DNA of 64,000 bases, from NCBI GenBank assembly GCA_018655015.1, contig JABIKK010000011.1, positions 111,736 through 175,735 on the forward strand, given 5' to 3'. A program made the position numbers and the translations under genes. The stretch comes from Candidatus Woesearchaeota archaeon (lineage in GTDB: Archaea; Nanobdellota; Nanobdellia; SCGC-AAA011-G17; UBA489). Below are positions 2,335 through 46,450 of this stretch, in pieces. Every line of letters starts with the position of its first letter. Position 1 is the stretch's first letter. Below the pieces are notes generated by a model. The model saw only the letters and a list, made by a program, of their open reading frames with translations, made no database searches and was not told where the DNA came from.

Positions 2335-2408
2335 TGAGCCCGATCGGATTTGAACCGACGACCTCTCGATTATCAGTCGAGTGCTCTACCAGACTAAGCC
2401 ACGGGCTC
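2335..2408 (-). tRNA. tRNA-Ile (anticodon GAU)
   Basis: The reverse complement GAGCCCGTGGCTTAGTCTGGTAGAGCACTCGACTGATAATCGAGAGGTCGTCGGTTCAAATCCGATCGGGCTCA folds as a cloverleaf. Anticodon arm is CTCGA/CTGATAA/TCGAG, and there is a GTTCAAATC T-loop. Confidence 0.85.
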
Positions 2409-4412: not shown

Positions 4413-4943
4413 TTATGGCTTTTTCCAAGCGATTTCGTAGTAAGTAACATCATCTTCTTCATCTACAACCCCAATTAAAAGGTTCTTTCTTGTTGAATGA
4501 GATACTCTATTTTTAGCTGAAAAATCATGCCACGTTAATGTATTTGATTCGTGTACTGGAAAAACAATCCATTTTGCGTGATCTTCACCAGGTTTGATTC
4601 CTTTGTCATATACTCTAAAGTCTGCTCCAAATTTTAGGGCAGTTTTTACAATGTAACCCTTTGCTCTTAAGTTGGAAAAGACTACGTATTTAACCCAGAA
4701 GTTTTTGTCTATCTTTCTTGCTTTTTTTAGGAAGTCTTCTTTTGAAAGTGATTTATTTTTATCTAAGAGTTCTATTTTCTTATTTTCTAATAGGAATAGT
4801 GCTTCGGATAATGAATACTTGAATTTGCCTGAAACTAGTTCTCCAAAACGACTTTTGTCATAGAGTTCTCTAGGTTGGGGTCCGTCTTCTGCTGTTGCCC
4901 CCTCACCCACAAAATTTGCTTGAAAGGTTTTCTTAGCTGCCAT
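4413..4943 (-). CDS. endA: tRNA-splicing endonuclease (short homotetramer-type EndA)
   Basis: 176 aa. The C-terminal catalytic domain reads LRAKGYIVKTALKFGADFRVYDKG...HAKWIV, matching the archaeal EndA Tyr/His/Lys catalytic-triad region. Confidence 0.75.
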   Translation of the reverse strand: MAAKKTFQANFVGEGATAEDGPQPRELYDKSRFGELVSGKFKYSLSEALFLLENKKIELLDKNKSLSKEDFLKKARKIDKNFWVKYVVFSNLRAKGYIVKTALKFGADFRVYDKGIKPGEDHAKWIVFPVHESNTLTWHDFSAKNRVSHSTRKNLLIGVVDEEDDVTYYEIAWKKP

Positions 4944-4994: not shown

Positions 4995-5897
4995 ATGGAA
5001 GTTACATTTTTGGGAACCTCTTCAATGGTGCCTACAAAGGAACGTGGACAAAGTGGTATATTGATAGACTGTGGTAGAGAGAAAGTTCTAGTTGATTGTG
5101 GAGAAAACATGCAAAGACAATTAAGGATTGCAGGGATTGCTCCTCCAAAAATTACAAGAATATTTATTTCACATTGGCATGGAGACCATATTTTTGGTTT
5201 GCCAGGATTGTTAGAGAACTTAGCTAAAAATTCTTTTGAGAAAAAGATTGAAATTTATGGAACTATTGATGTTAAGAAGAAGTTGATGCAGTTAGTTAGA
5301 ACGTTTGATATTGGGCACAAGATAAAGATTAATTTTACTGTGATTGAGAAAGGTGGAGTTTTTTTAGATACTGACGATTATCAATTTGGTGCTTATTTCT
5401 TGAAGCACACTATCCCTTGTTTAGGTTATTATACTAAGGAAAAGGATAAAGTTTGTGTTGATAAGGTAAAAATGAAGAAATTAAAATTACCTTCTGGACC
5501 AATTATTGCTAAGTTGAAAAATAAAAAAGATGTAGAATTCAATGGAAGGAAGATTAAATGGAAGGATGTTACATATGTTAAGGAAGGTAAGAAGGTTAGT
5601 GTTGTTTTAGATACGGCTATCTGTAGTGCTGCTGTTAGCGTTTGTAAGGATTCTGATCTGTTGATTTGTGAGGCTACATTTTTGAAGGAAATGAAAGTTA
5701 AGGCAAAAAAGTATAATCATTTAACATCTGAAGATGCAGGTGAATTAGCTAAGAAAGGCAAATGTAAGAAACTAGTAATTACTCACTTTAGTCAAAGATA
5801 TGAAAAGAGTGAAATTGAGACTATGGTTAAAGAAGCAAAAAAAGTCTTTAAGAAAGAAGTTATTGATGCTAAAGATTTTATGAAAATTAAAGTTTAA
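4995..5897 (+). CDS. rnz: Ribonuclease Z (tRNA 3' processing, metallo-beta-lactamase fold)
   Basis: Starts MEVTFLGTSSMVPT...GILIDCG and carries the HWHGDH (HxHxDH) zinc motif. At 300 aa it is the size of short-form RNase Z. Confidence 0.8.
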   Translation: MEVTFLGTSSMVPTKERGQSGILIDCGREKVLVDCGENMQRQLRIAGIAPPKITRIFISHWHGDHIFGLPGLLENLAKNSFEKKIEIYGTIDVKKKLMQLVRTFDIGHKIKINFTVIEKGGVFLDTDDYQFGAYFLKHTIPCLGYYTKEKDKVCVDKVKMKKLKLPSGPIIAKLKNKKDVEFNGRKIKWKDVTYVKEGKKVSVVLDTAICSAAVSVCKDSDLLICEATFLKEMKVKAKKYNHLTSEDAGELAKKGKCKKLVITHFSQRYEKSEIETMVKEAKKVFKKEVIDAKDFMKIKV

Positions 5898-13860: not shown

Positions 13861-16800
13861 TTAAAGGTTGATTGTTAATTTTTCACCTAGTAGTTTACTT
13901 GTGTCGATTTGATCTGTAACTACACTTTCTTTTGCACCCGCATCATCTAAGCCATAAACAAGAATCATTAAACCATAATCTCCGCTAGTCATTCCTTCAT
14001 TTTTCATTTCTGAGGGGGTTATTTCCATGGTAGTGCTTCCCGTATCTGCAGACCTCATAACAATGGCTTGACCATTTTTTTCAATTACTGCTTTTAATTC
14101 TAGGTTGCTAGGGTCAAAGAAAATAAATTTGTAGTCTACTTCTTTATCTCTCAGACGAAGCTCTCTGAAAATCGATTCAATCATTAGATTCTCACTCTGA
14201 GGGTAAGATCTTATTGCAATGACGTTATTTTGAGGATCATATCTTAGATTAAAAGTTATCCTCCCTGGAAAGGAATCATAAATGGAACATTCATTTTCTG
14301 CTCTCAAAAGCTTACAAGTTCCCCTTGCATAAACTATGCATTGAGGGTCTTCACAAAATCCTAAATTTTGATCAACATATTCTGCACATAAAGGATTATC
14401 TGAACAAAATGAAGCCTTGCTTTCTCCCGGATCTTCATTCATGGAAGAATGAGATAATGAAGGTGGTTGTGAAGGGTTGGTCTGTTGATTATTATTTGTG
14501 TCGCTACTAATTTGCTTATTTTCAGTAGATACTGCTAAAGTTCTGTATAAATCTGCAAGTCCAAGTCTGAGCTCTATCTGAACTTTGGGGTCCGCTAATC
14601 CATTGTTATCGATTACATCTATGTAAATGTTAATTGCTTTTTCATATTCATCAGTTGAGATTGCAGATTTAATTCTCTCTTTTGCATCTTTGATATCTTC
14701 TGTTGTTAAGTAAACGGATTTTAATCCAAGTTTTTTTACGTAATCATTAATTCTATCTACGGCCCCTTGCGTTGCATTAGGTAATGTTTTTGTAAAGTTG
14801 TTCCAATCTATATCTTTGTTTACTGAATATTCTGTAACTATGTTTTTTGCTGAAGGTAGGTGTAACCAACAGAATCCTAAATTTCTTCCTTCATTGGGCT
14901 TTGGCCCTTCCCAGCATTCTCCAACTTCTTTCCAATCTGCGTCATCTCCAGGAACGAATGTTGAACATACTCTTGTTATTCCTGTGTCCAATAGCCCTGA
15001 TGAAAATCCACCTGCAACAACAGCTCCAGTTTTTGTAGCAGCATTAGTGTAAGGTCCACTTAAACTTGAGCCTGAAGGATTACATTGTTCTGCAGTTTGT
15101 ATTTCAGCTTGACCTGCTTCTTTTTCCGCCATTTTTTGTGCAACCCAATTTGCTGCAAAGCCAGAAGTTGTCTTACCAAATCCACATTCTTCCCTTACAC
15201 CATATGTTGGACTGCTGTAAGCCATACATACTTGGTTGTAGCCTTCGGGGGCATTGAAGTCAATGTTTTCTGAACTAAATGCATCAGGAGTTAGTCTCTT
15301 ATTTCTTACTAACCAGGCTATTGGAAGTCCACTTTGACCATCGATTGACTGGTGCTTTAGATAAACTGAAAATGAGAGTGGTTCATTTGCTCCAGCATAC
15401 ATTCTGTAGTATACCTTGTATGTTGATTGTGGAGGGAATGGAATATCTGAGTAAGGTACTACATCCATTATTGCTGTGAATTGTGGAGGACTTTCTGGTT
15501 GCATTAATCTATCTGTGAATGATCCGACCCCTGGAACCTTGCCATATACTGCGGACTTACAAACTTCTGCGCCTATCTCGGGTAGAGCTCCACCAGAGAA
15601 TTGTGCGAAAGTGTTTTTTGCATAATCTTGAGTGAAGAATTTTAATCCGTTGATGGATTGGTCCATGCTTGCATCAAAGTCGGTATATTCTGATCCTTCA
15701 TTATCATGAATTTTATTTAATATTGTTCCAACTAATCCACTTTTAATATTGAATATTGCGATTGCTTCTTTCCAAAGGACATCACATATGTAATAACTTC
15801 TTAACATGTCACATATTCCAACAGACTCGTCATCAACTAAAGATCTTTTTAGACAATCAGAATATTCCATTAACACAGTTCTAATGTTTTGTAGACCTGC
15901 ATAAATTCCAGTGATACAAACGGGCATTACAACTTGTCCGCCATCAAATCCTATATCTGTTCCCGGTATACCCCAGTTATGTAATCCTAAAATTGTGCTT
16001 CCAATAATTCCTGTTTCTGCCACATTATCAACTTTCCAGGTTCCACCTAAATCAAATCTACTTGGTGGACAAAGAACTGGATCACATGCGTTGAATAATA
16101 ATTTACATTCTGTTGGACTGTAGAATTCTACACAGGAAGGCCCTTTTGTAATTGGATCGTTTCTAATTGCATAATCAATTCCATTACAAATTACTTGATC
16201 TCTGTTTGAAGCTTTTGCTCTGTTAATTGTGCCAACACATGATTCAACTTTCTTAAGATCTGCAGTATTTTTCCCTTCTTTGTTCCACTTTTCTGTTGTA
16301 GCGCTTAGACTATTTCCTCCAAATTCTGTGTCATCTGCTCTTATTTCCTCATTAGGGTTTATACGACCAAATATTCTTGGTTCAAGCATTCTCCCTCCAG
16401 AAGTGTAGTCTACCTCGGCGTAGTGTGTTGCATCAATAGTCATCCTATGGATTTTGCCTGCATTTGGCCCGTCAGTATAGTAAGTTACCTTGGGGATATG
16501 TTTTACTCTTTGTTCAACTGAAGTTGAGGAGAGGGTGTATGTTTCTCCATCTGGAGAAAGTAATGATGTTGCATCTGGTTCGTTGCTTCCAAAGAGAATT
16601 AGTCCTCCCTTAGGAGAAGGATAGGCATAATTTGTTCTAGAACGTGCTAATAAAACTGCTACATTTGCCTCTTCTTCTATTTTTTGTGGAGCCCAATCTG
16701 GATGTTTTATCTTTAATTCTCCGGTTTTTCTTTCAATCCACATTTCTTCTACGTTTTGTGAAAGTTGTGAATCCCCAGGATCTAATTTGAATTTTGCCAA

Positions 16801-19761
16801 GTTACCCACAAATACTTTGTTATCATTTGGTAAGTAGGCTGACGATTGAGAATTATCTAATGTTGAAAGGTAATCACTATGGTCGGAATAACTTGGATCA
16901 GAGCGAAGTTCCCTAAACATCTCGGCATTTCTCTCTTCTACTGCAATTTGTAAGTTGGCTCTTTCTTCATCGGATAGTACATCACCTGAAGGATTCAATC
17001 TTTTTAATTCTTCATCATAGTTTTTATCTTCTTTTATAGCTACATAGGCATTAAGGTAATCCTTTGTGTTTTGGGAGCTTGAGTTTTGAATCATTCTCTT
17101 TTGAAGATACGCAAGATTTTCTAGTTGTACACTATTTTCTGGAGTTTTTTTAATACCACTCAGATCATCTGCATAACTATCTTTGGAAGCATATTCGTAT
17201 GCATCTTCAGTTTCTTTTAGAATTTGATTATATGCATCTTCGTTTTCAAAAACACATTCGTCCATGGCTAAACCTTGCCTTTTACATAACTCTCCTTGTT
17301 GTTCCCAGAATATCTCTGATGCTCTATCTTTTGCTCTACCTGAACCTGAACCAACCGTTGCCTTAAGGAAATTCCATGCAGCAATTGCAGTAAATACTCC
17401 GAAACAGAATTTCTTCCATGCCTCATGGATCTTTCCAACTTTTTCCAAAGTATCGTCTAACTTTAATAGCAATTTTTCTGTTTTGTCAATTTCTGATTCT
17501 ATTGAAGCTGAGAATAATGGTAGGTCGAATGCTCTTTTTTCAATTGGAATATGTAAATTAAATCTTGCCGCACTAAATGCTTTTTCGATATTTGGACTTA
17601 CAATTATATGTGCTTCATTGTGAAGTTCGACACCTTCAAGGATTACTAGTTGGGTTTTAGATGTGTCTTTGTTTTTTATTGGAATACTTAAACCATTTCT
17701 ATCGTCTCTTAAAATTGTCATATCACTCTTAAAAGTTTTATCTGTGGGAGAGAGAACTAAAGAGTTAGAATTTATCTTTTTAACAATCCAAGGTGAATAT
17801 CCTTCCATGAAAGGCATTGCTTCTCCCTCATGTAATGTATGTTTTTCTTTGGCTATGGATCCATCTGGCTTGTAAACCTTAACTGTTGCAGTTGATTTGC
17901 TCCCTTCTAGTTGATAATCTGTAACGCTTGAACCATCTAAGACTACAGTCACTAGTTCATCATTCTTTTCCTTCAGATCTATTTCGGCCTTAAGACTTTG
18001 TCCAGAAGGGTTTTTTATATATGCAGTTAGTAGGTCTACCCTACTTTGGATTTTAACAGGGGAAATTATTGATTCTGCTTCTGTTTTTTTGTCACCATTA
18101 TATGCTATAATCATTTCAAGTAATCTATTGTATTCTATTATTGCTTGATTATGATTTTTTAATTTCGCATGATAAATAACTGCTTTGTTATATTGTGCGT
18201 AGAACTCGGGGATTAAATTTTTGTCTCCACTTGCTGCACCCTCGTAACTAACTTCCGTGTCTCCATCTACTAAGGAAACTACGCTTGCATATTCGTCGGC
18301 AGATAGTTGGTAAAGTTCATTTGCTTTTTTATCATCGGGGATTGTTCCAAGAGAAAACTCTGCGGTTTGGTAAGTTTTCCAGTAAGTCCCTAGGAATTCA
18401 TTTAATCTTGCCCTTGCTAAATTGTGAATGATTTCAAAACTGCCATCTTTAGTTAACATCGCGGCAGTATCAGATTCTATTTGTGTAAGTAATGATTGCA
18501 TTGCTTTTGCATGTTCTTTTGAAACTGATGTAGGGTTCTCTTGAAATATATCTACACAGGGATTTAATGTTTTTAGTGCTGCATTGTAGTTGTCGGGTGT
18601 TGTTGCTGTACGAAGTTTTTCTTCTACATCTTTAACAGCAAAAGATAATTCACTTCCTTTTGCAATTGGTCCGCATCTCAGGACGAAGGTTCCAGTAATT
18701 CCCATGTTTTCATTTTTGGCAATAGGCAAGTCATCAAATTCAATCTCTCCCGCTGCAGACCTTACAGATATCGGAAATCCTGCAGTTTGTAGTCTGCCAC
18801 TAGGTGTCCTGAAATCTGCATGTAAATTATTGTCCCTTAGTTCTATTCTCTCTAAAGTTATTCCTGATCCAGGGTAGATTGATTCTCCTTCAGCTACAGT
18901 ATGTGTTTCTGGCACTCCGTCTCTAAGAACCATAATGTCTAAAGTTCTCCCACCAGATTTAATATCTTTAAGATAAACATTAAACTTGTCAAAAACCTGA
19001 CCTGGAGAATAAAACCTACTTCTCCTTAACGTTCTTGATTTTTTTCCTTTTTCTATTCTTAGATCATCTTCTATGAGATTACCATTGTTATCATAAATAT
19101 CAAATATTGCATAGTTAGAAGATATTTCTTCAGCTTCAATGTAGATGTTTAAATATTTTTGATTTTCCCTGTTGCTTCTTTCTATAGATTTTTCTCTAAT
19201 AACCATTTTTGTTGGGCTTTTTCCAATTCCTGAAGAAACATCAAACAAAACTCTTGAATCAACTTCGATTATGATTTCATCTGGAACATTAGATTCTTTT
19301 GGAATTCTTGCAATAGGGATTTGTAAGTAACCCATGTTATCATAGGTTAATGGTTGTGTTCTGTCTCTGAAGTATCTCGGTCTTCCAACTCTTACAGGCA
19401 GATCTTCTGGCACAGTTACAACATTGTATGAAAGAATATCTATGTCATGAATTTTTGGGACTGTGATAGCCGGATTACTTGGCGTTCCTGAAAGTATTGC
19501 ATATACTAATGCTCCCTGATCTTCTAAAATGCCTGTTCGGAGTATTGATGGTTGATACTCTTTTACGTTGATTATTATGTCTTCCCCTATTATGTCTGAA
19601 ACTGTTGGAGATTCTGTAAGACGTCTATCTAATTCATCCCCTATACTTCTTGCTTGGTCCCCTATATTTGTTTTAACTATTTGACCTGATGCTATTGGTA
19701 ACGTTAGCACTAGGAAAATCATAAACATTGAAATTAGTTTTTTAAGTTTCATTTTATTCAA
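13861..19761 (-). CDS. Giant secreted/surface protein (1966 aa) with N-terminal signal peptide
   Basis: Uninterrupted 5.9 kb ORF. N-terminus MNKMKLKKLISMFMIFLVLTLPIASGQ. A Cys-rich module lies around CVGTINRAKASNRDQVICNGIDY...CKLLFNACDPVLCPP, and CSDNPLCAEY...CEDPQC near the C-terminus. No TM outside the signal peptide. Confidence 0.6.
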   Translation of the reverse strand: MNKMKLKKLISMFMIFLVLTLPIASGQIVKTNIGDQARSIGDELDRRLTESPTVSDIIGEDIIINVKEYQPSILRTGILEDQGALVYAILSGTPSNPAITVPKIHDIDILSYNVVTVPEDLPVRVGRPRYFRDRTQPLTYDNMGYLQIPIARIPKESNVPDEIIIEVDSRVLFDVSSGIGKSPTKMVIREKSIERSNRENQKYLNIYIEAEEISSNYAIFDIYDNNGNLIEDDLRIEKGKKSRTLRRSRFYSPGQVFDKFNVYLKDIKSGGRTLDIMVLRDGVPETHTVAEGESIYPGSGITLERIELRDNNLHADFRTPSGRLQTAGFPISVRSAAGEIEFDDLPIAKNENMGITGTFVLRCGPIAKGSELSFAVKDVEEKLRTATTPDNYNAALKTLNPCVDIFQENPTSVSKEHAKAMQSLLTQIESDTAAMLTKDGSFEIIHNLARARLNEFLGTYWKTYQTAEFSLGTIPDDKKANELYQLSADEYASVVSLVDGDTEVSYEGAASGDKNLIPEFYAQYNKAVIYHAKLKNHNQAIIEYNRLLEMIIAYNGDKKTEAESIISPVKIQSRVDLLTAYIKNPSGQSLKAEIDLKEKNDELVTVVLDGSSVTDYQLEGSKSTATVKVYKPDGSIAKEKHTLHEGEAMPFMEGYSPWIVKKINSNSLVLSPTDKTFKSDMTILRDDRNGLSIPIKNKDTSKTQLVILEGVELHNEAHIIVSPNIEKAFSAARFNLHIPIEKRAFDLPLFSASIESEIDKTEKLLLKLDDTLEKVGKIHEAWKKFCFGVFTAIAAWNFLKATVGSGSGRAKDRASEIFWEQQGELCKRQGLAMDECVFENEDAYNQILKETEDAYEYASKDSYADDLSGIKKTPENSVQLENLAYLQKRMIQNSSSQNTKDYLNAYVAIKEDKNYDEELKRLNPSGDVLSDEERANLQIAVEERNAEMFRELRSDPSYSDHSDYLSTLDNSQSSAYLPNDNKVFVGNLAKFKLDPGDSQLSQNVEEMWIERKTGELKIKHPDWAPQKIEEEANVAVLLARSRTNYAYPSPKGGLILFGSNEPDATSLLSPDGETYTLSSTSVEQRVKHIPKVTYYTDGPNAGKIHRMTIDATHYAEVDYTSGGRMLEPRIFGRINPNEEIRADDTEFGGNSLSATTEKWNKEGKNTADLKKVESCVGTINRAKASNRDQVICNGIDYAIRNDPITKGPSCVEFYSPTECKLLFNACDPVLCPPSRFDLGGTWKVDNVAETGIIGSTILGLHNWGIPGTDIGFDGGQVVMPVCITGIYAGLQNIRTVLMEYSDCLKRSLVDDESVGICDMLRSYYICDVLWKEAIAIFNIKSGLVGTILNKIHDNEGSEYTDFDASMDQSINGLKFFTQDYAKNTFAQFSGGALPEIGAEVCKSAVYGKVPGVGSFTDRLMQPESPPQFTAIMDVVPYSDIPFPPQSTYKVYYRMYAGANEPLSFSVYLKHQSIDGQSGLPIAWLVRNKRLTPDAFSSENIDFNAPEGYNQVCMAYSSPTYGVREECGFGKTTSGFAANWVAQKMAEKEAGQAEIQTAEQCNPSGSSLSGPYTNAATKTGAVVAGGFSSGLLDTGITRVCSTFVPGDDADWKEVGECWEGPKPNEGRNLGFCWLHLPSAKNIVTEYSVNKDIDWNNFTKTLPNATQGAVDRINDYVKKLGLKSVYLTTEDIKDAKERIKSAISTDEYEKAINIYIDVIDNNGLADPKVQIELRLGLADLYRTLAVSTENKQISSDTNNNQQTNPSQPPSLSHSSMNEDPGESKASFCSDNPLCAEYVDQNLGFCEDPQCIVYARGTCKLLRAENECSIYDSFPGRITFNLRYDPQNNVIAIRSYPQSENLMIESIFRELRLRDKEVDYKFIFFDPSNLELKAVIEKNGQAIVMRSADTGSTTMEITPSEMKNEGMTSGDYGLMILVYGLDDAGAKESVVTDQIDTSKLLGEKLTINL

Positions 19762-21736
19762 ATGTTGGATTCCTCATTTTTTTACTAAATTGTCCTTGAC
19801 TCGTATAAACATTATTTAATTCTTCAAATGATGTCGGTGTTTTCCCCCTATAAGAGTATAGTGCAATTTTATTTGAAGTAGCCAATACTCTTCGATCTAC
19901 ATTCCATGATGTTGATCCCCCTCCAGCTACAACTGAGTCTAATTCAATTGGATCAATTTTTTGTTGCGTACATTTAGTTTCTGTTAATCCAACAATGCCA
20001 CCAATGCCCCTCTTTGGAACTTCTGAACAAATTTCTATTTCTCTTTCTGGGAAATTAAAACCGCCAGATGTTTCAACCATCAATGTTGATGATACTTTGT
20101 AATTACCTGCGACCAATTTTAACTTTTCATTTGAAGGATAGTAGTAAGTAGTAAAATATTCTTTGTCTTCATTCTCAAATTGGAATAGTATGCTTTCTGT
20201 GTCATAAGGAGATCTTAGTATCCCTTCATCATCAATTATTATTTCAACAGGTAATGCGTAATAAGGCTCCAATGGGACGTTAACCATTCCTTCTTGGTTA
20301 GTATCTACTTCAAAACTAGATGTGTGATATCCTTGTTTAGATGCAATCATTTTTCCACCAATACATTGTGGGAATTGGGTTGTTAGTGAGTATGTGCTTC
20401 CTTCTTGCCTGGTTCTACCGGATTCACATTCGGTGAAAACGCACTGTAATGAAATGTCTGCACCATCTAATGGGACAGATGACCCATCTGCAGCTATACC
20501 TAATGCTGTAACTTTTAGAGTTGTGTCCTTTCTTTCACATATTCCAGGATCGTCTTCAAATTGTGGAACTAAGAATTGATTTTTCTTAGCTTGATTATTA
20601 TCAATCACTGCAACGAAAGGAAATTGGAAAGTGTAATCTTCCTCAGTTAAGGTTGCAAGCACTGGGAATTTTAGGTCATACACAAAATGATAATCATTTA
20701 AACAAAATAGAGGGAGTAAAAATCTTGCTGCTTCGTTTTCTGATGTGAAAGGTTTACCCCTTAGTAGTTCTGAATCTGTTCCAATGACGTCCATCATAAA
20801 TGGCCAGGAAGGGGATGAGATTAATGAAACCGTTAGGTCTTTTTCTTTTTTCTTAAATGTGTCATGTATTAATTGTTCATCTTTTCTATCCGTTATCCTA
20901 AAGTCTGTTCCTTCTATCTTTAATGTAGGAATATTTAATGCTAAGATGGATTTTAGGTCTTGAGCTACTTGTGTTTTCAACCAGGTTCTTGGAGTACATT
21001 CAAAGTCTACGCCTGAGAAAGGAATTTCATCGTAAACAACCATTGTTTCTAATGTGAAGTTTTCAACGAAACCAGTTCTAGTTTCATACTCGAAGAGTTC
21101 TAAGGCACGAGAGTATAATCTGCCTAACGGTACATTTGAAATTGTTCTGAACTTTGTGAAGGTTTGTGCAGTTTCCTTATATTTAACTTCTAGAAGCATT
21201 GAAACATCCGCTATTACTGCCTCATTCCCAATTTCAATTTCAATCTCTGGAGAATTGTGTTCTATAATGTAGCCTTCACTTTTGAATATAGTGTAATCAT
21301 TTAAACAAGAATCTAATTCTGACTCCATGAATTGTTCTAACTCAGTTTCCATTTCTTGTTTTGAAGGTACTTGTGTTTTTTCTAGATTATTTTGTGTTAA
21401 GAATGACCAGTAGGGAACAGTTAATCCATCATTACCAAAGATGCTTAATCTATTTGTTAATGGGTTATATGCTGTTGGAGGAAAGTCTCCTTCAGGCGTT
21501 ATTATATGTCCACCCTTTAATCCAAGTTCTGCAGTTCCATCATCTAAGGATTGTTGTAAGCAATCATTTGTAAAAGAATGTACTTTTTCTATTTGACTTA
21601 TTGTTGGTTGCTCTGATAAAGTTTCTTTTTTTAGTGAATCGAAAATTTGTTCTCTAAAGTATACTCCGGTTATTACTGCTGCAAGTATTACTATTCCTGC
21701 AATTATGAAAGCTGTAGCTTGGGCCTTTTTATTCAT
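19754..21736 (-). CDS. Membrane-anchored extracellular protein (660 aa) with an N-terminal signal-anchor
   Basis: N-terminus MNKKAQATAFIIAGIVILAAVITGVYF, then a soluble Cys-containing region. Its stop overlaps the start of the giant gene by 8 nt. Confidence 0.5.
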   Translation of the reverse strand: MNKKAQATAFIIAGIVILAAVITGVYFREQIFDSLKKETLSEQPTISQIEKVHSFTNDCLQQSLDDGTAELGLKGGHIITPEGDFPPTAYNPLTNRLSIFGNDGLTVPYWSFLTQNNLEKTQVPSKQEMETELEQFMESELDSCLNDYTIFKSEGYIIEHNSPEIEIEIGNEAVIADVSMLLEVKYKETAQTFTKFRTISNVPLGRLYSRALELFEYETRTGFVENFTLETMVVYDEIPFSGVDFECTPRTWLKTQVAQDLKSILALNIPTLKIEGTDFRITDRKDEQLIHDTFKKKEKDLTVSLISSPSWPFMMDVIGTDSELLRGKPFTSENEAARFLLPLFCLNDYHFVYDLKFPVLATLTEEDYTFQFPFVAVIDNNQAKKNQFLVPQFEDDPGICERKDTTLKVTALGIAADGSSVPLDGADISLQCVFTECESGRTRQEGSTYSLTTQFPQCIGGKMIASKQGYHTSSFEVDTNQEGMVNVPLEPYYALPVEIIIDDEGILRSPYDTESILFQFENEDKEYFTTYYYPSNEKLKLVAGNYKVSSTLMVETSGGFNFPEREIEICSEVPKRGIGGIVGLTETKCTQQKIDPIELDSVVAGGGSTSWNVDRRVLATSNKIALYSYRGKTPTSFEELNNVYTSQGQFSKKMRNPTFE

Positions 21737-23760: not shown

Positions 23761-23832
23761 TGAGCCCGGCAGGGATCGAACCTGCGACCTCTTCCAAGTC
23801 AGGGAAACGTCATACCACTAGACCACGGGCTC
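23761..23832 (-). tRNA. tRNA-Val (anticodon GAC)
   Basis: The reverse complement GAGCCCGTGGTCTAGTGGTATGACGTTTCCCTGACTTGGAAGAGGTCGCAGGTTCGATCCCTGCCGGGCTC(A) folds as a cloverleaf. Anticodon arm is TTTCC/CTGACTT/GGAAG, with an unusual U at position 37. Confidence 0.75.
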
Positions 23833-25544: not shown

Positions 25545-25632
25545 CTCTTATAATGAGTATAATAGGTAAGTCTGACCTGTAGGACTATATAAATGTTTTT
25601 TATTTTTTGTAGTGGTTAATATTAGGAAAAAG

Positions 25633-25707
25633 CGCCCCGACTGGGATTCGAACCCAGGTCCCCGGCTCGAAAAGCCGGAATGATTGACCGAACTACACTA
25701 TCGGGGC
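25633..25707 (-). tRNA. tRNA-Glu (anticodon UUC)
   Basis: The reverse complement GCCCCGATAGTGTAGTTCGGTCAATCATTCCGGCTTTTCGAGCCGGGGACCTGGGTTCGAATCCCAGTCGGGGCG has the same architecture as canonical archaeal tRNA-Glu. Confidence 0.85.
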
Positions 25708-25762
25708 AATGAACTGAAATCTCATAAATTTCTTTAAAAAACTTTGGATTTTAAAAAATCAG

Positions 25763-25878
25763 TGAGCCCAGCCGGATTTGAACCGGCGACCTCCAGCTTT
25801 CTTAGAGCTTGTTTCCTTTTCTAAAACGAAAAGGCGTCATATAAGACTGGCGCTCTAACCAGACTAAGCTACGGGCTC
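25763..25878 (-). tRNA. Intron-containing tRNA. Predicted mature anticodon is UAU (tRNA-Ile), with a ~41-nt intron at the canonical 37/38 position.
   Basis: 5' exon is GAGCCCGTAGCTTAGTCTGGTTAGAGCGCCAGTCTTATA. The intron is TGACGCC...CTAAGAA. 3' exon is AGCTGGAGGTCGCCGGTTCAAATCCGGCTGGGCTCA. Anticodon stem CCAGT/GCTGG closes only after removing the 41 nt. Confidence 0.7.
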
Positions 25879-25957
25879 ATAGTGTCTTTGTGTCATTGAG
25901 AGACTTTTAAAACTTTTGATAAGAAGCTTTATTAGGCTTTTATTCTGGAAAAGGAGT

Positions 25958-27578: not shown

Positions 27579-28559
27579 ATGATTGCACTAGGTATTGAAA
27601 GCACGGCACATACATTTGGTGTTGGAATTGTAAGTAAAAAGAATGTTCTTGTTAATTTAAGAGACTCCTACACAACTGAAAAGGGAGGAATAATTCCTAC
27701 GGAAGCTGCTGAGCACCATAAGAAAATAGCAATGGATTTAGTAAGGGAAGCAATTGAAATATTTGAAAAAGAAAGTAAGGGTAAGAAAATAGATTTAGTT
27801 GTTTACTCTCGTGGTCCGGGAATAGGTCCTTGTTTGCATGTAGGGAAGAATACTGCTAGAGAAGTTGGGAAAAACCTTGGCGTCCCTGTTATTGGAATTA
27901 ACCATTGTGTAGCCCATTTATCTGTGGGAAGTTTAGTTACTCCCGTTAAAGACCCTGTTTTATTGTACGCATCCGGGGCAAACACACAGATTATAGCCTA
28001 TGAAGGTAAAAAATACAGAGTTTTTGGTGAAACATTGGATCAAGGTATTGGTAATTTTATAGACTCATTTGCGAGACATATGGGGCTTGGTTTTCCTGGA
28101 GGTCCGAAAATAGAAGTTTTGGCAAAAAAAGGTAGGAAATACATTGAGTTGCCTTATTCAGTTAAGGGAATGGATATATCTCTTTCTGGCATGTTAACTA
28201 ATTTAAAAAATAAATTTGATTCAAAAGAGTTTAGTGAAAAAGATCTAGCTTACTCCTTGCAAGAAACTGCATTTGCAATGTTAGTTGAAGTCGCTGAGAG
28301 AGCAATGGCCCATTGTGGTAAAAAAGAACTTTTGATTGGCGGCGGTGTTGGTTGCAATTCAAGGTTGCAAGAAATGTGCGCAATTATGTGCAAGGAAAGA
28401 GGTGCAAAGTTTTATGCCCCTCCAAAAGGATTATTAGTAGATAATGGTGCGATGATTGCATACCAAGGAATATTAGAACATTGTGCTGGAAGAAAAGAAA
28501 GTAAGGTTGAAGTCAGGCCTTATGAAAGAACTGATGACATTTTGGTTGATTGGAAATAG
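27579..28559 (+). CDS. kae1: tRNA N6-adenosine threonylcarbamoyltransferase Kae1 (KEOPS catalytic subunit)
   Basis: MIALGIESTAHTFGVGIV...GINHCVAHL metal-binding motifs. 326 aa ASKHA fold. Confidence 0.85.
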   Translation: MIALGIESTAHTFGVGIVSKKNVLVNLRDSYTTEKGGIIPTEAAEHHKKIAMDLVREAIEIFEKESKGKKIDLVVYSRGPGIGPCLHVGKNTAREVGKNLGVPVIGINHCVAHLSVGSLVTPVKDPVLLYASGANTQIIAYEGKKYRVFGETLDQGIGNFIDSFARHMGLGFPGGPKIEVLAKKGRKYIELPYSVKGMDISLSGMLTNLKNKFDSKEFSEKDLAYSLQETAFAMLVEVAERAMAHCGKKELLIGGGVGCNSRLQEMCAIMCKERGAKFYAPPKGLLVDNGAMIAYQGILEHCAGRKESKVEVRPYERTDDILVDWK

Positions 28560-36604: not shown

Positions 36605-38977
36605 CTAAAGGGGCGGTTTCTTTACTCTAATGAGAGAATGAACCTTGAAAACTACAAATATGAGTAATAGGATTAAGAGAATATTAACGGCAGCTATTGA
36701 AGGTTTAGTGTCCATACCGCACTTGCTTTCTTCGCATTTATTTGATAGGCATTCTGTAGATAAGCTACAAGTTTCTCCGTTTTTCTTTTGAGATACTAAG
36801 TTGCTAGGTGAACTGCAATATTTCTTTTCTATTATTTCTCCCACCTTCAAACAAATAGTTTTTTCTTCACTGTCTGTGAAAAGGCATCCGAATGGACATT
36901 GTGAAGATTCTACAGGCGTAGTAGTTGTAGTTTCTTTTGTTTCATTTTGTTCTTGTTCGCATGAGTTACATGAACCGCCACAGTCTAATCCAGTTTCATC
37001 ACCATCTTGCACGCCGTTGTTACATGTTAATGCTTCACATGAATCACATGAACCTCCGCAATCTAATCCAGTTTCATCACCGTTTTGTAATCCATCTGAG
37101 CAAGTAGTTGTTATTTCTTCTTTTGATGAAGATTTTGAAGAAGTTTGGAGTAATTCAATATTAATATCTGCAAATCTTTGTTCCAAAGGATAGTTAATTA
37201 CTAAATTTCCTTCGTTACTACTACTGACAACATCGCTTAAGACATATTCTGCTCCGTAATCAGACATACCAGAATAAGTATCATCAACGCCACTCATAGC
37301 TATGTTTGAAAATCCTGCCGTTGGAATTCCTGCAGTTGTTCCTCCAGTTAGTTGGAATGTAACGGTTTCATCTGAAGTTGCTTCCTCAAATGAAGATGCT
37401 TTCGTGGTTACTTGTATACTATAAGTTGTTCCGGGAGTGTTTGATGTTCCGGGATCAATTATTCCTCCACCATTAATTATTATATCTACTGAGTCGGCCT
37501 CAATAGTTCCATCTTTATCTAAATCTACTGATAAATTATTTCCGGTGGAATCTTCAATGTAGAAATTGAATTGGTTTCCGCCTACATCAATTGTTCCTTC
37601 TCCAAGAGTTCCCTCGGTTGTTGATGCAGTATAGGTGGATGTTAATTGGACGATTCCACTTTCTAACATTTCATTGAGAGTGATCTTATTATTGTTTGTA
37701 TCTATGGAGTTATATTGTAAGACGAATGTTTTATCATTTTTTGATGATCCTGTTGAAAGAAAAAAGTAATCATCTGTAGAAATACTGAATGTTGATGAGC
37801 TAGCGCTTTCCTTGATATGTGTATCGTCCGTTCCGTCTCCTAAACTTCCGGACTCATAATAAAACGGAACACTATAGGTTTTTTTGTTTTGGTTTTCAAA
37901 AACTAAGTTGTAAGTTTCCTTGTTTGTAGTTGCAAATTCAACTGTTGTTTCTGTTACAGTTTTAAACCCATGATAGAGGATGTCCCAATTGCCTAAGAGG
38001 GCTTCAGCATTACTCATTTCGAGAGATAATTTTGATCCTTGTGGGATGTAGATTTTTGAAGGGTTTGTTCCCCGATACTTAATGTTTGTAAGTTTAAAGA
38101 CGTCTGAAAGGTATGTCCCTTTAATCAAAACAAAACCTTCTTGAATATTTGATCCATCAATTGATAATCCTTGTTCAAATGTATCATCATTGTAAGAATC
38201 TTCTAGTTCTATGGTTTTTGCACCTATGTAAATATTTGCTAAATCTTTTGCTATACCATCGGAGGTTACAATGTCTCTTACTCCGATAACTGTGTTGTCA
38301 GCTAGTTGGAGATATTCATCTTCTTCTAATTTGCCTATATCTTCCCCATTAACAGTCATTATTATTGTTTGTGGGGATGATGAAATTGATGAAACCATAA
38401 CTTCGTATTTGTTTGAACCAAGAGTATAGATTTTTGAGTCCCCTTCGAATACCGTGTCCGATATTGAACTTGTTGCGAGTAAAAGTGTTACTTTTGAAAG
38501 CCCTGTGTCTATGTTTGAGTCTATTATTACATACTCATCTGCAAAGAGTTTAATCTTTACATCTTCTATATCTTCTAAATTGTTTGAAGTAGACTTTGTA
38601 CTTTCTAATCCCTTATCGAAAACAGCCTCGTATTCGAAGAACGCTTCTGTTGTAGAAGTTCCTCCTAAAATTTCAATGAAAGATCCTAAATCCCCATTAT
38701 CAGATTTTAGATATCTTACTTTAGGGGCTTGGATTGTATCCACCGAATTGCCAAAATGAATATACTGGTGTTGGGTTGCTGATCCAGAGTCGGTTGTTAT
38801 TGTAAAAGATTCTAGTAGGGGCATTTCTGCTGAAGTTATTATTGGAAGGATATCTCCAAAGCTTTCTTCAATCTCTACTTTGTCTCCTGAGCCCCCATAG
38901 TCGAATTTTTCTGCTAAAACTAAGATTGAGCTAATTAGGACTAATACTATTAAAATTATACATCTAGATATGCGCAT
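36605..38977 (-). CDS. Large surface-anchored protein (790 aa): signal peptide, Thr/Ser-rich extracellular region, duplicated Cys module, C-terminal TM anchor
   Basis: N-terminus MRISRCIILIVLVLISSILVLA. Two copies of a CxxGxQxGDETGLDCGGSCxSC module. C-terminus ...SIAAVNILLILLLIFVVFKVHSLIRVKKPPL. Confidence 0.5.
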   Translation of the reverse strand: MRISRCIILIVLVLISSILVLAEKFDYGGSGDKVEIEESFGDILPIITSAEMPLLESFTITTDSGSATQHQYIHFGNSVDTIQAPKVRYLKSDNGDLGSFIEILGGTSTTEAFFEYEAVFDKGLESTKSTSNNLEDIEDVKIKLFADEYVIIDSNIDTGLSKVTLLLATSSISDTVFEGDSKIYTLGSNKYEVMVSSISSSPQTIIMTVNGEDIGKLEEDEYLQLADNTVIGVRDIVTSDGIAKDLANIYIGAKTIELEDSYNDDTFEQGLSIDGSNIQEGFVLIKGTYLSDVFKLTNIKYRGTNPSKIYIPQGSKLSLEMSNAEALLGNWDILYHGFKTVTETTVEFATTNKETYNLVFENQNKKTYSVPFYYESGSLGDGTDDTHIKESASSSTFSISTDDYFFLSTGSSKNDKTFVLQYNSIDTNNNKITLNEMLESGIVQLTSTYTASTTEGTLGEGTIDVGGNQFNFYIEDSTGNNLSVDLDKDGTIEADSVDIIINGGGIIDPGTSNTPGTTYSIQVTTKASSFEEATSDETVTFQLTGGTTAGIPTAGFSNIAMSGVDDTYSGMSDYGAEYVLSDVVSSSNEGNLVINYPLEQRFADINIELLQTSSKSSSKEEITTTCSDGLQNGDETGLDCGGSCDSCEALTCNNGVQDGDETGLDCGGSCNSCEQEQNETKETTTTTPVESSQCPFGCLFTDSEEKTICLKVGEIIEKKYCSSPSNLVSQKKNGETCSLSTECLSNKCEESKCGMDTKPSIAAVNILLILLLIFVVFKVHSLIRVKKPPL
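36960..37093. repeat. Two diverged 78-nt direct repeats encoding the duplicated Cys module
   Basis: catgagttacatgaaccgccacagtctaatccagtttcatcacc versus catgaatcacatgaacctccgcaatctaatccagtttcatcacc. Confidence 0.55.
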
Positions 38978-43603: not shown

Positions 43604-46450
43604 CTAGAGCTTGTTAAATGCTATTTTGAATGTGTAGTCTTTGATTTTCTCTTCTTTTTGGACATTATACTGGCCATCTAGTGCTCCAAATGCTAGATTT
43701 ACTGCTCCAACTCTTTCCATTAGTTGTTCTTTGAAGGCCATTAAGTCGTAGTCTGAATCAATAACTAATGAGATTCTATCTCTTGGCACTAGGTTTGCTT
43801 TTTTTCTTAAAGCTTGAACTTTTCTTGAAACTTCTCGGAAGTATCCTTCTAGTTCTAGCTCTTTTGTTATTTTAGTATCTAATTTTGCTGATACTTCATT
43901 ACCTTCTACCTTGGTGATATCTAATTTTTTTAGATTTACTTCATCAAGTATTAATTCTATGAATTCTTTGTTTAACTTGTCTGGTGAGATGATACTTGCA
44001 CTAGACAATGGTTGTCTAACTGAGATTTTTGCTTTTTCTCTTTCTTCTAGTATCCTACTTACTATTTCTCTTGTTATTGTCATTTGTTCATTTAGTTTTT
44101 TATTAATTGATTTCTCATTAACTCTTGGCCATGATTCTAAGTGAACTGATTCTTCAATTTTATTATTCTTTTTGAACATTAGTTGTATTTCTTCAGAAAT
44201 GAATGGTGTTATCGGAGCCATTACTTTTGATAGGGAATGTAATGCGAATGCTAAAGTTTGAATCGCGTTTGCTTTATCTTCCTTATCTTCTGATTTGAAT
44301 CTATCTCTACTTCTTCTTACATACCATTTTGAAAGAGTTTCGATGTATGATGCTATTTCTCTACAAGTTTGAGGAGTATCGTATCCCTCTAGTGATTCAG
44401 TTACGTTTTTGATTAATGAATTAGTTTGACTTATGCACCATTTGTCGAGTATGTTTTTGGAGTTGGGTTCTTTTAATGAAACTTTTTCATTTCCAGACAA
44501 TTCATAGAAACTTTTTATGTTTGATAGAAGCATTACTACTTTTCTGTAAACTTCTTTTACTTCGTCTTCGTGGAAGTTTAGATCTTGTGCCTTCATTAAT
44601 TGTGTAGACATTAAGTAGAACCTTAACGAGTCTGCACCGTACTTTTCAAAGATTTCATTTGGATCTGGATAGTTCTTCTTTGATTTTGACATTTTAGATC
44701 CGTCTGAAGCTAGAATGTTTCCAGATACAACTACGTTTTTGAAGGGAGCTTTATCGAATAGTAATACAGAGATTACATGCATATAATAGAACCAAGCCCT
44801 TACTTGGCCCACATATTCTGATACGAAATCGCAAGGGAAATTCTTTTCAAACAATTCCTTGTTTTCGAAAGGATAATGCTTTGCAGCGAAGGGCATTGCG
44901 CCTGATTCAAACCAACAGTCTAGTACTTCTGGAATTCTTTCCATCTCTTTCCCACATTTGCAATTTAGTTTAATATCGTCTACTATGTGTTTGTGGAGGT
45001 CTACATTGTCATTAAGCTTCTTTGTAGAATTTTCTTGTAATTCTTTTATTGAGCCAATTACCTTGACTTCCTCACAATCATTGCATTTCCAAACTGGTAT
45101 TGATGTCGCCCAGAATCTATTTCTTGATATGCTCCAATCTGGGGCGGTTTCTACTATGTGTTTGAATTGACCTTCTTTAATGTTTTTAGGATACCAATTA
45201 ATTTGTTTGTTTTTCTTTAGTAATTGTGCTTTTATTTTTTGTATATCGACGAACCAAGAGTTAACTGCATTGTAAAATAATGGAGTTTCACATCTGTAAC
45301 AGAAAGGATATTCATGTGAATAATCTAATTTATCATAGAGTAAATTTCTTTCTTCCAAATCATTTAGTACTTTTTCATCTGCTTTTTTGAACCAAGTGTC
45401 GATCCATTCTTTTGGACCAAGATGTAATTTACCATGATGCCCTAGATGTTGGATAACTGGAAGGTCATATTTTTTAACCATTTCATAATCAAACTCCCCA
45501 TAGAGTGCCATGTGAACAATTCCAGTTCCATCTTCAGAAGTTACTTCATCCCCTCCATTAATTACATAATGTCCTTTTTTGTCTGAAGGAATGTGGTATA
45601 GTGGTTCGTACTCTTTGTGAATTAGTTTTTCGCCTTTTAGTGTATCTACAACCTTATAATCTCCATTTAGAGTTTCTAATCTGTCTTTGACTAAGATTAA
45701 GAGTTCTCCGTTGTGCTCAACTTTTACGTAATCTAGTTTTGCGTTGATTGCTAATGCAACATTACCAATTAGTGTCCAAGGAGTTGTTGTCCATGCTAAA
45801 AAATAAGTGTTTTCTTCACCTTTTAGTTTGAATTTTGCTGTTGCTGTTTTTTCTGTTATTGTTTTGTAACTCTTATCCATTGCAATTTCTGTGTTTGATA
45901 AAGGTGTTTGGCATCTTGGGCAAAATAACAATACTTTTTTTCCTTCGTAGATGTATCCTTTATCATAAAGTTTTTTGAAAATATTCCATACTGATTCCAT
46001 GTAGGAATTATCCATTGTTTTGTAAGAATTATCAAAATCTATCCATTTCCCCATACGTCTAACTGTTTTTTTCCATTCTCCTGCAAAGTCTAGAACCTTT
46101 GAGCGACAGAATTCATTAAACTTCTTTATGCCCATCTCTTCTATTTCTTTTTTTTGTTTGATTTTTAGATCTTTTTCTGCAATGTTCTCAATTGGAAGTC
46201 CGTGGCAATCCCATCCCCATCTACGTTCTACTCTATGTCCTTTCATAGTCCAGAATCTAGGGAATAAATCTTTGGAAGTAAGGCCTAAGATATGTCCGTA
46301 ATGTGGGGTTCCTGTTGCAAATGGAGGTCCATCATAGAATAGGTATTGCTTATCTTTGGGTTTGGAGTCTACTGACTTTTCAAATATTTTGTTTTTTTCC
46401 CAAAACTCAACTAATTTGTTCTCCTTCTCAGTTATGTTGGAACCAGCCAT
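43604..46450 (-). CDS. ileS: Isoleucyl-tRNA synthetase
   Basis: HIGH region PFATGTPHYGH, KMSKS motif and a CP1 editing-domain region. 948 aa, which is compact. Confidence 0.9.
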   Translation of the reverse strand: MAGSNITEKENKLVEFWEKNKIFEKSVDSKPKDKQYLFYDGPPFATGTPHYGHILGLTSKDLFPRFWTMKGHRVERRWGWDCHGLPIENIAEKDLKIKQKKEIEEMGIKKFNEFCRSKVLDFAGEWKKTVRRMGKWIDFDNSYKTMDNSYMESVWNIFKKLYDKGYIYEGKKVLLFCPRCQTPLSNTEIAMDKSYKTITEKTATAKFKLKGEENTYFLAWTTTPWTLIGNVALAINAKLDYVKVEHNGELLILVKDRLETLNGDYKVVDTLKGEKLIHKEYEPLYHIPSDKKGHYVINGGDEVTSEDGTGIVHMALYGEFDYEMVKKYDLPVIQHLGHHGKLHLGPKEWIDTWFKKADEKVLNDLEERNLLYDKLDYSHEYPFCYRCETPLFYNAVNSWFVDIQKIKAQLLKKNKQINWYPKNIKEGQFKHIVETAPDWSISRNRFWATSIPVWKCNDCEEVKVIGSIKELQENSTKKLNDNVDLHKHIVDDIKLNCKCGKEMERIPEVLDCWFESGAMPFAAKHYPFENKELFEKNFPCDFVSEYVGQVRAWFYYMHVISVLLFDKAPFKNVVVSGNILASDGSKMSKSKKNYPDPNEIFEKYGADSLRFYLMSTQLMKAQDLNFHEDEVKEVYRKVVMLLSNIKSFYELSGNEKVSLKEPNSKNILDKWCISQTNSLIKNVTESLEGYDTPQTCREIASYIETLSKWYVRRSRDRFKSEDKEDKANAIQTLAFALHSLSKVMAPITPFISEEIQLMFKKNNKIEESVHLESWPRVNEKSINKKLNEQMTITREIVSRILEEREKAKISVRQPLSSASIISPDKLNKEFIELILDEVNLKKLDITKVEGNEVSAKLDTKITKELELEGYFREVSRKVQALRKKANLVPRDRISLVIDSDYDLMAFKEQLMERVGAVNLAFGALDGQYNVQKEEKIKDYTFKIAFNKL

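Follow-up and report, generated by a model that had tools for sequence, protein, structure and literature searches.

How can an archaeon read the isoleucine codon AUA when that codon is among its common ones? In archaea, AUA is canonically decoded by tRNA-Ile2(CAU), in which C34 is converted to agmatidine by the enzyme TiaS. The question is raised here by a tRNA gene at positions 25763-25878 of a 64,000-nucleotide stretch (hereafter the window) of contig JABIKK010000011.1, from the assembly of a Candidatus Woesearchaeota archaeon. We consider it very likely that this locus is a functional gene for an intron-containing tRNA-Ile with the anticodon UAU (tRNA-Ile(UAU), also called tRNA-Ile3) in a Woesearchaeota-type DPANN archaeon. 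The codon in question accounts for 35% of isoleucine codons in the window (27.5 per 1000 codons, above the usage of AUG), and this heavy usage implies that a dedicated AUA decoder is needed.

Splice sites and anticodon of the tRNA gene

A search of the whole window with the Rfam tRNA family (RF00005) gave a match at 25763-25878 on the minus strand with 56.8 bits (E=1.3e-9), compared to a gathering score of 29 bits. Model positions 1-71 were covered, and a local search of the gene gave E=3.3e-12. The covariance model placed a 42-nt insertion immediately 3' of CUUAUA, corresponding to a 41-nt intron plus nucleotide 38. Default ARAGORN did not report the gene when run on the window. The precursor consists of GAGCCCGUAGCUUAGUCUGGUUAGAGCGCCAGUCUUAUA (exon 1), ugacgccuuuucguuuuagaaaaggaaacaagcucuaagaa (intron) and AGCUGGAGGUCGCCGGUUCAAAUCCGGCUGGGCUCA (exon 2), and the features of the locus, including those of its bulge-helix-bulge (BHB) motif and the local minimum free energy (MFE) fold, are listed here.

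25763..25878, minus strand: complete tRNA-Ile(UAU) gene (Rfam RF00005); precursor 116 nt, mature tRNA 75 nt, CCA not encoded
25840..25878, minus strand: exon 1 (tRNA positions 1-37), ending in ...CCAGU CUUAUA; placed from the sequence and the BHB sites
25799..25839, minus strand: intron of 41 nt, BHB type, at the canonical position 37/38 (ugacgccuuuucguuuuagaaaaggaaacaagcucuaagaa); placed by BHB enumeration and the Rfam insertion
25763..25798, minus strand: exon 2 (positions 38-73) with discriminator A73; from the spliced sequence
25841..25843, minus strand: anticodon U34-A35-U36; read from the sequence and fixed by the BHB splice sites
25842..25845, minus strand: 5' strand of the BHB central helix H (C32 U33 U34 A35), pairing with intron nucleotides 36-39 (UAAG) at 25801-25804
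25839..25841, minus strand: 5' bulge, U36 A37 and intron nucleotide 1 (5' splice site between UA and U); from enumeration and folding
25798..25800, minus strand: 3' bulge, intron nucleotides 40 and 41 and A38 (3' splice site between AA and A); a 3-nt AAA bulge in the local MFE fold
25815..25834, minus strand: intron hairpin of 7 bp (CCUUUUC/GAAAAGG, loop GUUUUA); base-pair probabilities >0.98
25905..25912, no strand assigned: palindromic box TTTTAAAA resembling a TATA box, located 27-34 nt before the 5' end of the tRNA, in the gap that separates the divergent tRNA and GTPase genes
25753..25758, minus strand: oligo-T run (T6), 5 nt past the discriminator

When the spliced 75-nt sequence was submitted, ARAGORN called it tRNA-Ile(tat), with a perfect cloverleaf, no mismatch in any stem and the anticodon loop C-U-U-A-U-A-A. 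The anticodon nevertheless hinges on the splice sites, because the cloverleaf closes with any 41-nt deletion here, provided that a 7-nt loop remains. We enumerated every helix/3-nt bulge/4-bp helix/3-nt bulge geometry in the precursor, and the sole one whose product is a tRNA of 75 nt with a loop of 7 nt lies at the canonical 37/38 site. It comprises an outer helix h of 5 bp, which is the anticodon stem, a central helix H of 4 bp and an inner helix h' of 2 bp (G-C and A-U). The two 3-nt bulges are thus split by the 4-bp helix, with the predicted cuts after the second nucleotide of each, and helices flank the motif on both sides as in the strict hBHBh' form, the inner one being thermodynamically weak. 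Folded alone, the anticodon arm plus intron had an MFE structure in which the AAA bulge, the anticodon stem and the CUUA/UAAG helix are all present, and the pairs of H had probabilities of 0.71-0.77. A CAU anticodon, as in tRNA-Ile2, does not agree with the sequence, as position 34 is a T in the DNA (window position 25843 is 'a' on the plus strand).

Outside the transcribed part, the TTTTAAAA box would be the promoter, and 11 relatives have an A/T box equally far upstream of their orthologue. The T6 run is likely an archaeal terminator. By exact protein matches, the species of the window also occurs in NCBI assembly GCA_018697815.1 and in several ENA, JGI and Logan assemblies. Four of them (L001 to L004: NCBI GCA_018697815.1, two from ENA and one from JGI) contain a tRNA gene identical to this one.

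A preliminary description of this DNA had proposed a tRNA gene with exactly the coordinates of the Rfam match, leaving its strand unstated. Its 41-nt insert at 37/38 is recovered independently by the Rfam insertion and by the BHB enumeration. The loop CUUAUAA and anticodon UAU that it read follow from BHB-defined splicing and from the ARAGORN call on the spliced form, and its assignment to isoleucine is in line with A73 and with 81% identity to tRNA-Ile(GAU). It had also made the proposal depend on whether the exon junctions form a BHB, which by folding and enumeration they do.

Homologous genes across DPANN archaea

The window has a G+C content of 34% and encodes archaeal informational proteins (TFB, MCM, RFC, Topo VI, PolB, FEN1 and the thermosome). 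Among the matches listed in species-representative genomes, the nearest is a Ca. Woesearchaeota metagenome-assembled genome (MAG), L083, with 81% nucleotide identity, and synteny extends to other Woesearchaeota loci. By these sequence comparisons the host is a Woesearchaeota-type DPANN archaeon, and the DPANN-like genome suspected in the preliminary description is supported by both the L083 identity and the Woesearchaeota synteny.

We scanned 185,579 species-representative genomes with a pattern consisting of the D-arm, any anticodon stem, CTTATA, a 30-60-nt gap and the T-loop. Archaeal loci were matched in at least 106 species genomes, most of them DPANN-labelled. With labels taken from the record titles, the loci were distributed as follows.

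Micrarchaeota-type: at least 38 loci
Woesearchaeota: at least 30 loci
Unclassified archaea: at least 14 loci
Nanoarchaeota / Nanoarchaeia: at least 8 loci
'uncultured Methanosarcinales': at least 6 loci
Aenigmatarchaeota: at least 5 loci
Pacearchaeota: at least 2 loci
Iainarchaeota-type: at least 2 loci
Methanobacteriota: at least 1 locus
Bacteria: at least 14 loci

Once parsed, the bacterial matches among those listed were mostly not intron-containing tRNAs. The tRNA-Ile(UAU) gene is thus, as far as sequence can tell, commonplace in DPANN archaea. The statement that a UAU tRNA-Ile is known from only a few lineages has accordingly been overtaken, both by the ARMAN genes described in 2011 (PMC3239211) and by the archaeal species genomes counted here. 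As a side observation, the six 'uncultured Methanosarcinales archaeon' MAGs (L013, L017, L054, L078, L100 and L113) carry DPANN-type intron-containing tRNA-Ile(UAU) genes, and in L113 the acceptor stem, GAGCCC, also resembles that of Woesearchaeota; the taxonomy given in these records looks unreliable.

From the listed loci and the window we assembled at least 101 distinct genes that have A73, a 37/38 intron and a cloverleaf without defects. Their introns range from 15 to 45 nt and are mutually unrelated in sequence. The intron position opposite C32 (n-2, counted from the intron end) is G in 97 of the 101 genes. Helix H is formed with 4/4 pairs in 71/101 genes, where chance predicts 1.7%, and with 3/4 pairs in a further 26/101. 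The first pair of h' covaries (GC 57, GU 10, CG 9, UA 9, AU 4) and is formed in 89/101 genes, compared to a maximum of 70 in 2000 shuffles; the second is formed in 71/101, compared to a shuffle maximum of 63. In L083, the closest relative among the matches listed, the T-stem shows compensatory differences and the 7-bp intron hairpin is kept via G-U changes. This comparison of homologous sequences argues strongly for the BHB and for the UAU anticodon.

Lastly, a second scan covered metagenomes and allowed introns of 0-30 nt; it gave at least 120 loci (L126-L245), from which 118 genes were parsed. Among the matches listed, 101 of the 118 parsed genes were intronless tRNA(UAU) genes, mostly judged from their sequence to be non-DPANN. 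Many of these intronless genes have an encoded CCA or a CCGCCC/GGGCGG acceptor stem. The DPANN-type genes among the matches listed comprised five with an intron and at least three without (L130, L204, L238). The intronless L204 is syntenic with the Micrarchaeales locus L116, whose orthologue has a 16-nt intron. We had considered that the intron might be obligatory, as in eukaryotes, where it serves modification at positions 34 and 36, and rejected this idea in view of the intronless DPANN-type genes. The intron of DPANN tRNA-Ile(UAU) is frequent but dispensable.

Decoding of AUA

The window holds the closest paralogue of the tRNA and several of the proteins that its maturation and charging would call for.

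2335..2408, minus strand: tRNA-Ile(GAU), closest paralogue in the window; 81% identity, identical acceptor stem
4413..4943, minus strand: EndA, tRNA splicing endonuclease, a 176-aa single-unit catalytic subunit (Pfam PF01974, tRNA_int_endo, and PF02778, tRNA_int_endo_N; TIGR00324)
4995..5897, plus strand: RNase Z, for 3' trailer removal (TIGR02651, 300.4 bits, cutoff 292.95)
43604..46450, minus strand: isoleucyl-tRNA synthetase (IleRS; TIGR00392 ileS, 833 bits)

The identity of tRNA-Ile(UAU) to four other tRNAs of the window is only 59-67%. Its A73, its A37 and the acceptor stem that it has in common with tRNA-Ile(GAU) bear on isoleucine identity, and from these features the tRNA is expected to be charged by IleRS. 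EndA scores 105 bits with TIGR00324 (cutoff 59.6). Its best relatives of solved structure are the Nanoarchaeum equitans alpha subunit 3IEY_A (130 bits), followed by the M. jannaschii homotetramer, 1A79 (102 bits), and the catalytic Tyr, His and Lys all fall within aligned conserved motifs. The protein may act as alpha4 or together with a beta subunit. EndA is thus a genome-encoded candidate for splicing the BHB intron, and cleavage is predicted. Both EndA and RNase Z had been named in the preliminary description as encoded in the window, and both score above their curated cutoffs.

A plausible course of events can be put together from these elements. Transcription would start from the A/T-box promoter and stop at the oligo-T run. 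By sequence and folding, the anticodon arm and the intron are predicted to form the BHB, with the splice sites in its two 3-nt bulges and a short inner helix closing the motif. If the established archaeal pathway applies, EndA would cut both bulges, a ligase encoded outside the window would join the halves, and RNase P, RNase Z and the CCA-adding enzyme would finish the ends. The mature 75-nt tRNA, with UAU and A37, would then be charged by the IleRS of the window and read AUA. By analogy with ARMAN, Nanoarchaeum and Korarchaeum, tRNA-Ile(UAU) most likely replaces the system of TiaS and agmatidine-bearing tRNA-Ile2(CAU). Again by analogy, misreading of AUG would probably be prevented by a modification of U34.

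The closest described counterparts are those of ARMAN. ARMAN-2, -4 and -5 have tRNA-Ile(UAU) and lack both tRNA-Ile(CAU) and TiaS, and the ARMAN-2 precursor, with a 25-nt intron at 37/38 in a strict hBHBh' motif, was cleaved in vitro (Fujishima et al. 2011, PMC3239211). ARMAN-2 (Ca. Micrarchaeum acidiphilum) resembles the present case in its DPANN host, its UAU anticodon, its single 37/38 hBHBh' intron and the proposed replacement of TiaS and tRNA-Ile(CAU). However, its intron is 25 nt rather than 41 nt long and unrelated in sequence, and its endonuclease is of the three-unit epsilon2 type, in contrast to the 176-aa single-unit alpha-type EndA found here. In DPANN archaea, endonucleases of the alpha4, (alpha-beta)2 and epsilon2 types are all known (PMC5829648). 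A further difference is that cleavage and TiaS absence were demonstrated for ARMAN, whereas the window gene is known from its sequence.

Among 167 archaeal genomes surveyed in 2018, only Korarchaeum cryptofilum and N. equitans had a tRNA-UAU (PMC6000648); tRNAscan-SE 2.0 names it tRNA-Ile3(UAU) in these two species (PMC8450103). Like the present gene, theirs are genome-encoded archaeal UAU tRNAs in place of tRNA-Ile2(CAU) (PMC8450103; PMC6000648), and that of K. cryptofilum has an intron and finds its best match in the tRNA-Ile(GAU) of its own genome. They differ in belonging to other phyla and hosts, and in being isolated cases where we find a large DPANN-wide family.

Compared with the TiaS system, the task is the same, namely to read AUA as isoleucine without reading AUG, but the tRNA body in the window resembles tRNA-Ile(GAU), and since UAU is encoded in the gene, agmatinylation of C34 is not needed. 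In yeast, the intron of tRNA-Ile(UAU) is required for the formation of pseudouridine (Psi) at positions 34 and 36, and the eukaryotic anticodon is PsiAPsi. Eukaryotic nuclear tRNA-Ile(UAU) thus shares with the gene studied here both the UAU anticodon and a 37/38 intron that pairs with the anticodon loop; the difference is that this intron is required in yeast and dispensable in DPANN-type genes. The bacterium Mycoplasma mobile also reads AUA with a UAU tRNA (tRNA-Ile2(UAU)), in a reduced genome that has lost its C34-modifying enzyme, but there the gene is bacterial and intronless. U34 is unmodified in M. mobile and IleRS and the ribosome are adapted, IleRS by a Trp-to-Arg change in its bacterial-type Zn-binding domain (PMC3575796), a domain that we judge not to be comparable with archaeal IleRS.

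Several observations weigh against reading the locus as a spliced tRNA-Ile(UAU) that stands in for TiaS. The absence of TiaS and tRNA-Ile2(CAU) was checked within the 64-kb window only. ARAGORN in intron mode (-i) calls the gene tRNA-Ser(UGA). Helix h' is just 2 bp long and, folded in isolation, forms with a base-pair probability of about 0.06; the BHB is only marginally 'strict'. Moreover, the full-length MFE fold is not the cloverleaf with the BHB (-44.5 compared to -36.4 kcal/mol), because GCUCUAA in the intron can pair with UUAGAGC of the D-arm. Since the whole precursor does not adopt the cloverleaf and BHB, thermodynamic folding alone cannot validate the structure, and we relied on motif enumeration and on the comparison of homologues.

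The alternative that survives best is that the gene is a functional but redundant AUA decoder in a genome that also has TiaS and tRNA-Ile2(CAU), in which case no TiaS-independent strategy would be signalled. The restriction of the search to the window leaves room for this, and the co-occurrence of tilS with tRNA-Ile(TAT) is documented in some bacteria (PMC3575796). On the other hand, the archaeal lineages reported to have tRNA-Ile(UAU), i.e., N. equitans, K. cryptofilum and ARMAN-2/4/5, are all without tRNA-Ile(CAU) (PMC3239211, PMC8450103), and TiaS absence is reported for ARMAN (PMC3239211). In our data, no TiaS was found by Pfam or NCBIfam among the larger open reading frames (ORFs) of the window, all those of 350 aa or more included, which says little on the whole genome; no tRNA(CAU) was found within the window, nor in the archaeal loci around the homologous tRNA-Ile(UAU) genes. 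A literature search on DPANN and TiaS returned nothing relevant. On balance, we find redundancy unlikely.

A decaying or non-expressed pseudogene is very improbable. Such a reading could appeal to the naive full-length fold, which is not a cloverleaf, and to the gene being known here from its sequence. Against it, all stems are intact and free of mismatches, the sequence recurs unchanged in four other assemblies, orthologues are conserved with compensatory changes in more than 100 species, promoter-like and terminator-like signals are present, and the heavy use of AUA needs a decoder.

We give still less credence to the boundary that ARAGORN -i proposes, an intron of equal length lying four bases further 5' (after U34) that would leave the loop CUUGAAA and make the gene tRNA-Ser(UGA), as called by the program on the window and likewise for 26 family members. 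It is the only alternative boundary put forward by any tool, and thus the only instance of the different boundary that had been named as fatal to the UAU anticodon; we rejected it because the BHB, the tRNA class and the discriminator all contradict it. By enumeration, there is no BHB at these boundaries. The variable loop here has 5 nt, whereas tRNA-Ser, being of class II, has a long variable arm; the discriminator usual for tRNA-Ser is G73, and here it is A73. The tRNA body shares 81% identity and the acceptor stem with the tRNA-Ile(GAU) of the window. Applied to the orthologues, the ARAGORN offset gives differing anticodons (UGA, UGU, UGC) for one tRNA body, where 37/38 gives UAU in all, and across the family the program splits this one body into Ile(tat) in 55 genes and Ser(tga) in 26. 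Our preferred reading thus continues to be a tRNA-Ile(UAU) spliced at 37/38.

Neighbouring genes, a second spliced tRNA and wider meaning

Around the tRNA-Ile(UAU) gene, tRNA-Glu(UUC) (25632-25707, minus strand) lies 55 nt downstream on the same strand. ARAGORN found 28 tRNA-Glu(UUC) genes in the set made up of the window and the retrieved GTDB loci, one of the 28 being that of the window, so the Ile(UAU)/Glu(UUC) pairing looks conserved. An Obg/YchF-like GTPase gene is divergent from tRNA-Ile(UAU) in several Woesearchaeota and Nanoarchaeota loci. The 5' acceptor strand GAGCCCG together with A73 is common to three minus-strand tRNA genes of the window, tRNA-Ile(GAU) at 2335-2408, tRNA-Val(GAC) at 23761-23832 and tRNA-Ile(UAU) at 25763-25878. 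Further away, Pfam gave no match for two adjoining very large ORFs (1966 aa and 660 aa) at 13861-21736 on the minus strand, and neither Pfam nor NCBIfam gave one for a 790-aa ORF at 36605-38977; these large unmatched ORFs may encode DPANN surface proteins. A second tRNA gene with introns was also found, and its parts are listed here with the ORF that overlaps it and with Kae1.

27579-28559: Kae1, a further enzyme confirmed in the window
10823-11629, plus strand: LAGLIDADG ORF of 268 aa with two LAGLIDADG motifs (Pfam LAGLIDADG_3, 3.1e-15)
11454-11581, plus strand: tRNA-Leu(UAG), class II, two introns, solved by hand
11454-11484, plus strand: exon 1 of tRNA-Leu(UAG)
11485-11511, plus strand: intron 1, 27 nt, at the non-canonical position 30/31, relaxed BHB, H = GGCU/GGCC
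11512-11518, plus strand: exon 2
11519-11535, plus strand: intron 2, 17 nt, at the canonical position 37/38, H = CUUA/UAAG
11536-11581, plus strand: exon 3

Rfam gave no match at the tRNA-Leu(UAG) locus even at E<1, default ARAGORN likewise reported none, and ARAGORN -i miscalled it as an odd tRNA-Phe(aaa) at 11454-11582. Neither strict-BHB enumeration nor an ARAGORN single-deletion scan could resolve the gene; a manual solution with two introns did, giving a spliced tRNA of 84 nt with a perfect cloverleaf. The BHB of intron 1 has both 3-nt bulges and an h' of 2 bp, with an outer helix of 1 bp only. The gene is identical in five other assemblies, and a blastn search of the candidate against plasmids was uninformative. 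The LAGLIDADG ORF, which could conceivably encode a free-standing homing endonuclease aimed at the tRNA locus, lies directly upstream and its frame continues through the tRNA gene. Its endonuclease core ends near residue 200, so its tail looks like read-through; in assembly L246, the gene callers split this ORF into 128 + 112 aa.

The complementarity of the intron to the D-arm was also followed through the family of tRNA-Ile(UAU) genes. GCUCU, part of the motif GCUCU(A/G) that is complementary to AGAGC of the D-stem, occurs in 19 of the 101 introns where about 1.8 would be expected. In the clade of the window it lies at the 3' end of the intron, and Iainarchaeota- and Micrarchaeota-type genes have it on the 5' side or in the apical loop; the motif varies along with the D-loop base next to it. 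Duplexes of intron and D-arm had a mean energy of -10.2 kcal/mol, compared to -8.3 kcal/mol for reversed controls, and z<-2 was reached in 17/101 genes for the D-arm and in 2/101 for the T-arm. The enrichment is modest, and its statistics ignore the kinship of the sequences. In tRNA-Leu(UAG), the 37/38 intron pairs with its own D-loop over 8 bp. It is a doubtful but conceivable idea that DPANN tRNA-Ile(UAU) introns have been selected to pair with their own D-arm, and that the canonical intron of tRNA-Leu(UAG) acts alike. Under such selection, the precursor would keep a fold other than the cloverleaf up to the splicing step, and splicing or modification could be timed in this way. Another option would be that the intron, once excised, serves as an antisense to the D-arm.

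In summary, the window gene joins a known kind of tRNA and opens no new mechanism. What changes is the view of how widespread this kind is. An intron-containing tRNA-Ile(UAU) is routine in genomes labelled as Woesearchaeota, Micrarchaeota, Aenigmatarchaeota, Nanoarchaeota, Pacearchaeota and Iainarchaeota and is no curiosity of Nanoarchaeum, Korarchaeum and ARMAN, a DPANN-wide spread that is not reflected in the archaeal surveys that we found (167 and 217 genomes). One tRNA that default gene finders overlook or mislabel is added as well, and the result settles how a very common AUA codon can be read in a Woesearchaeote genome.

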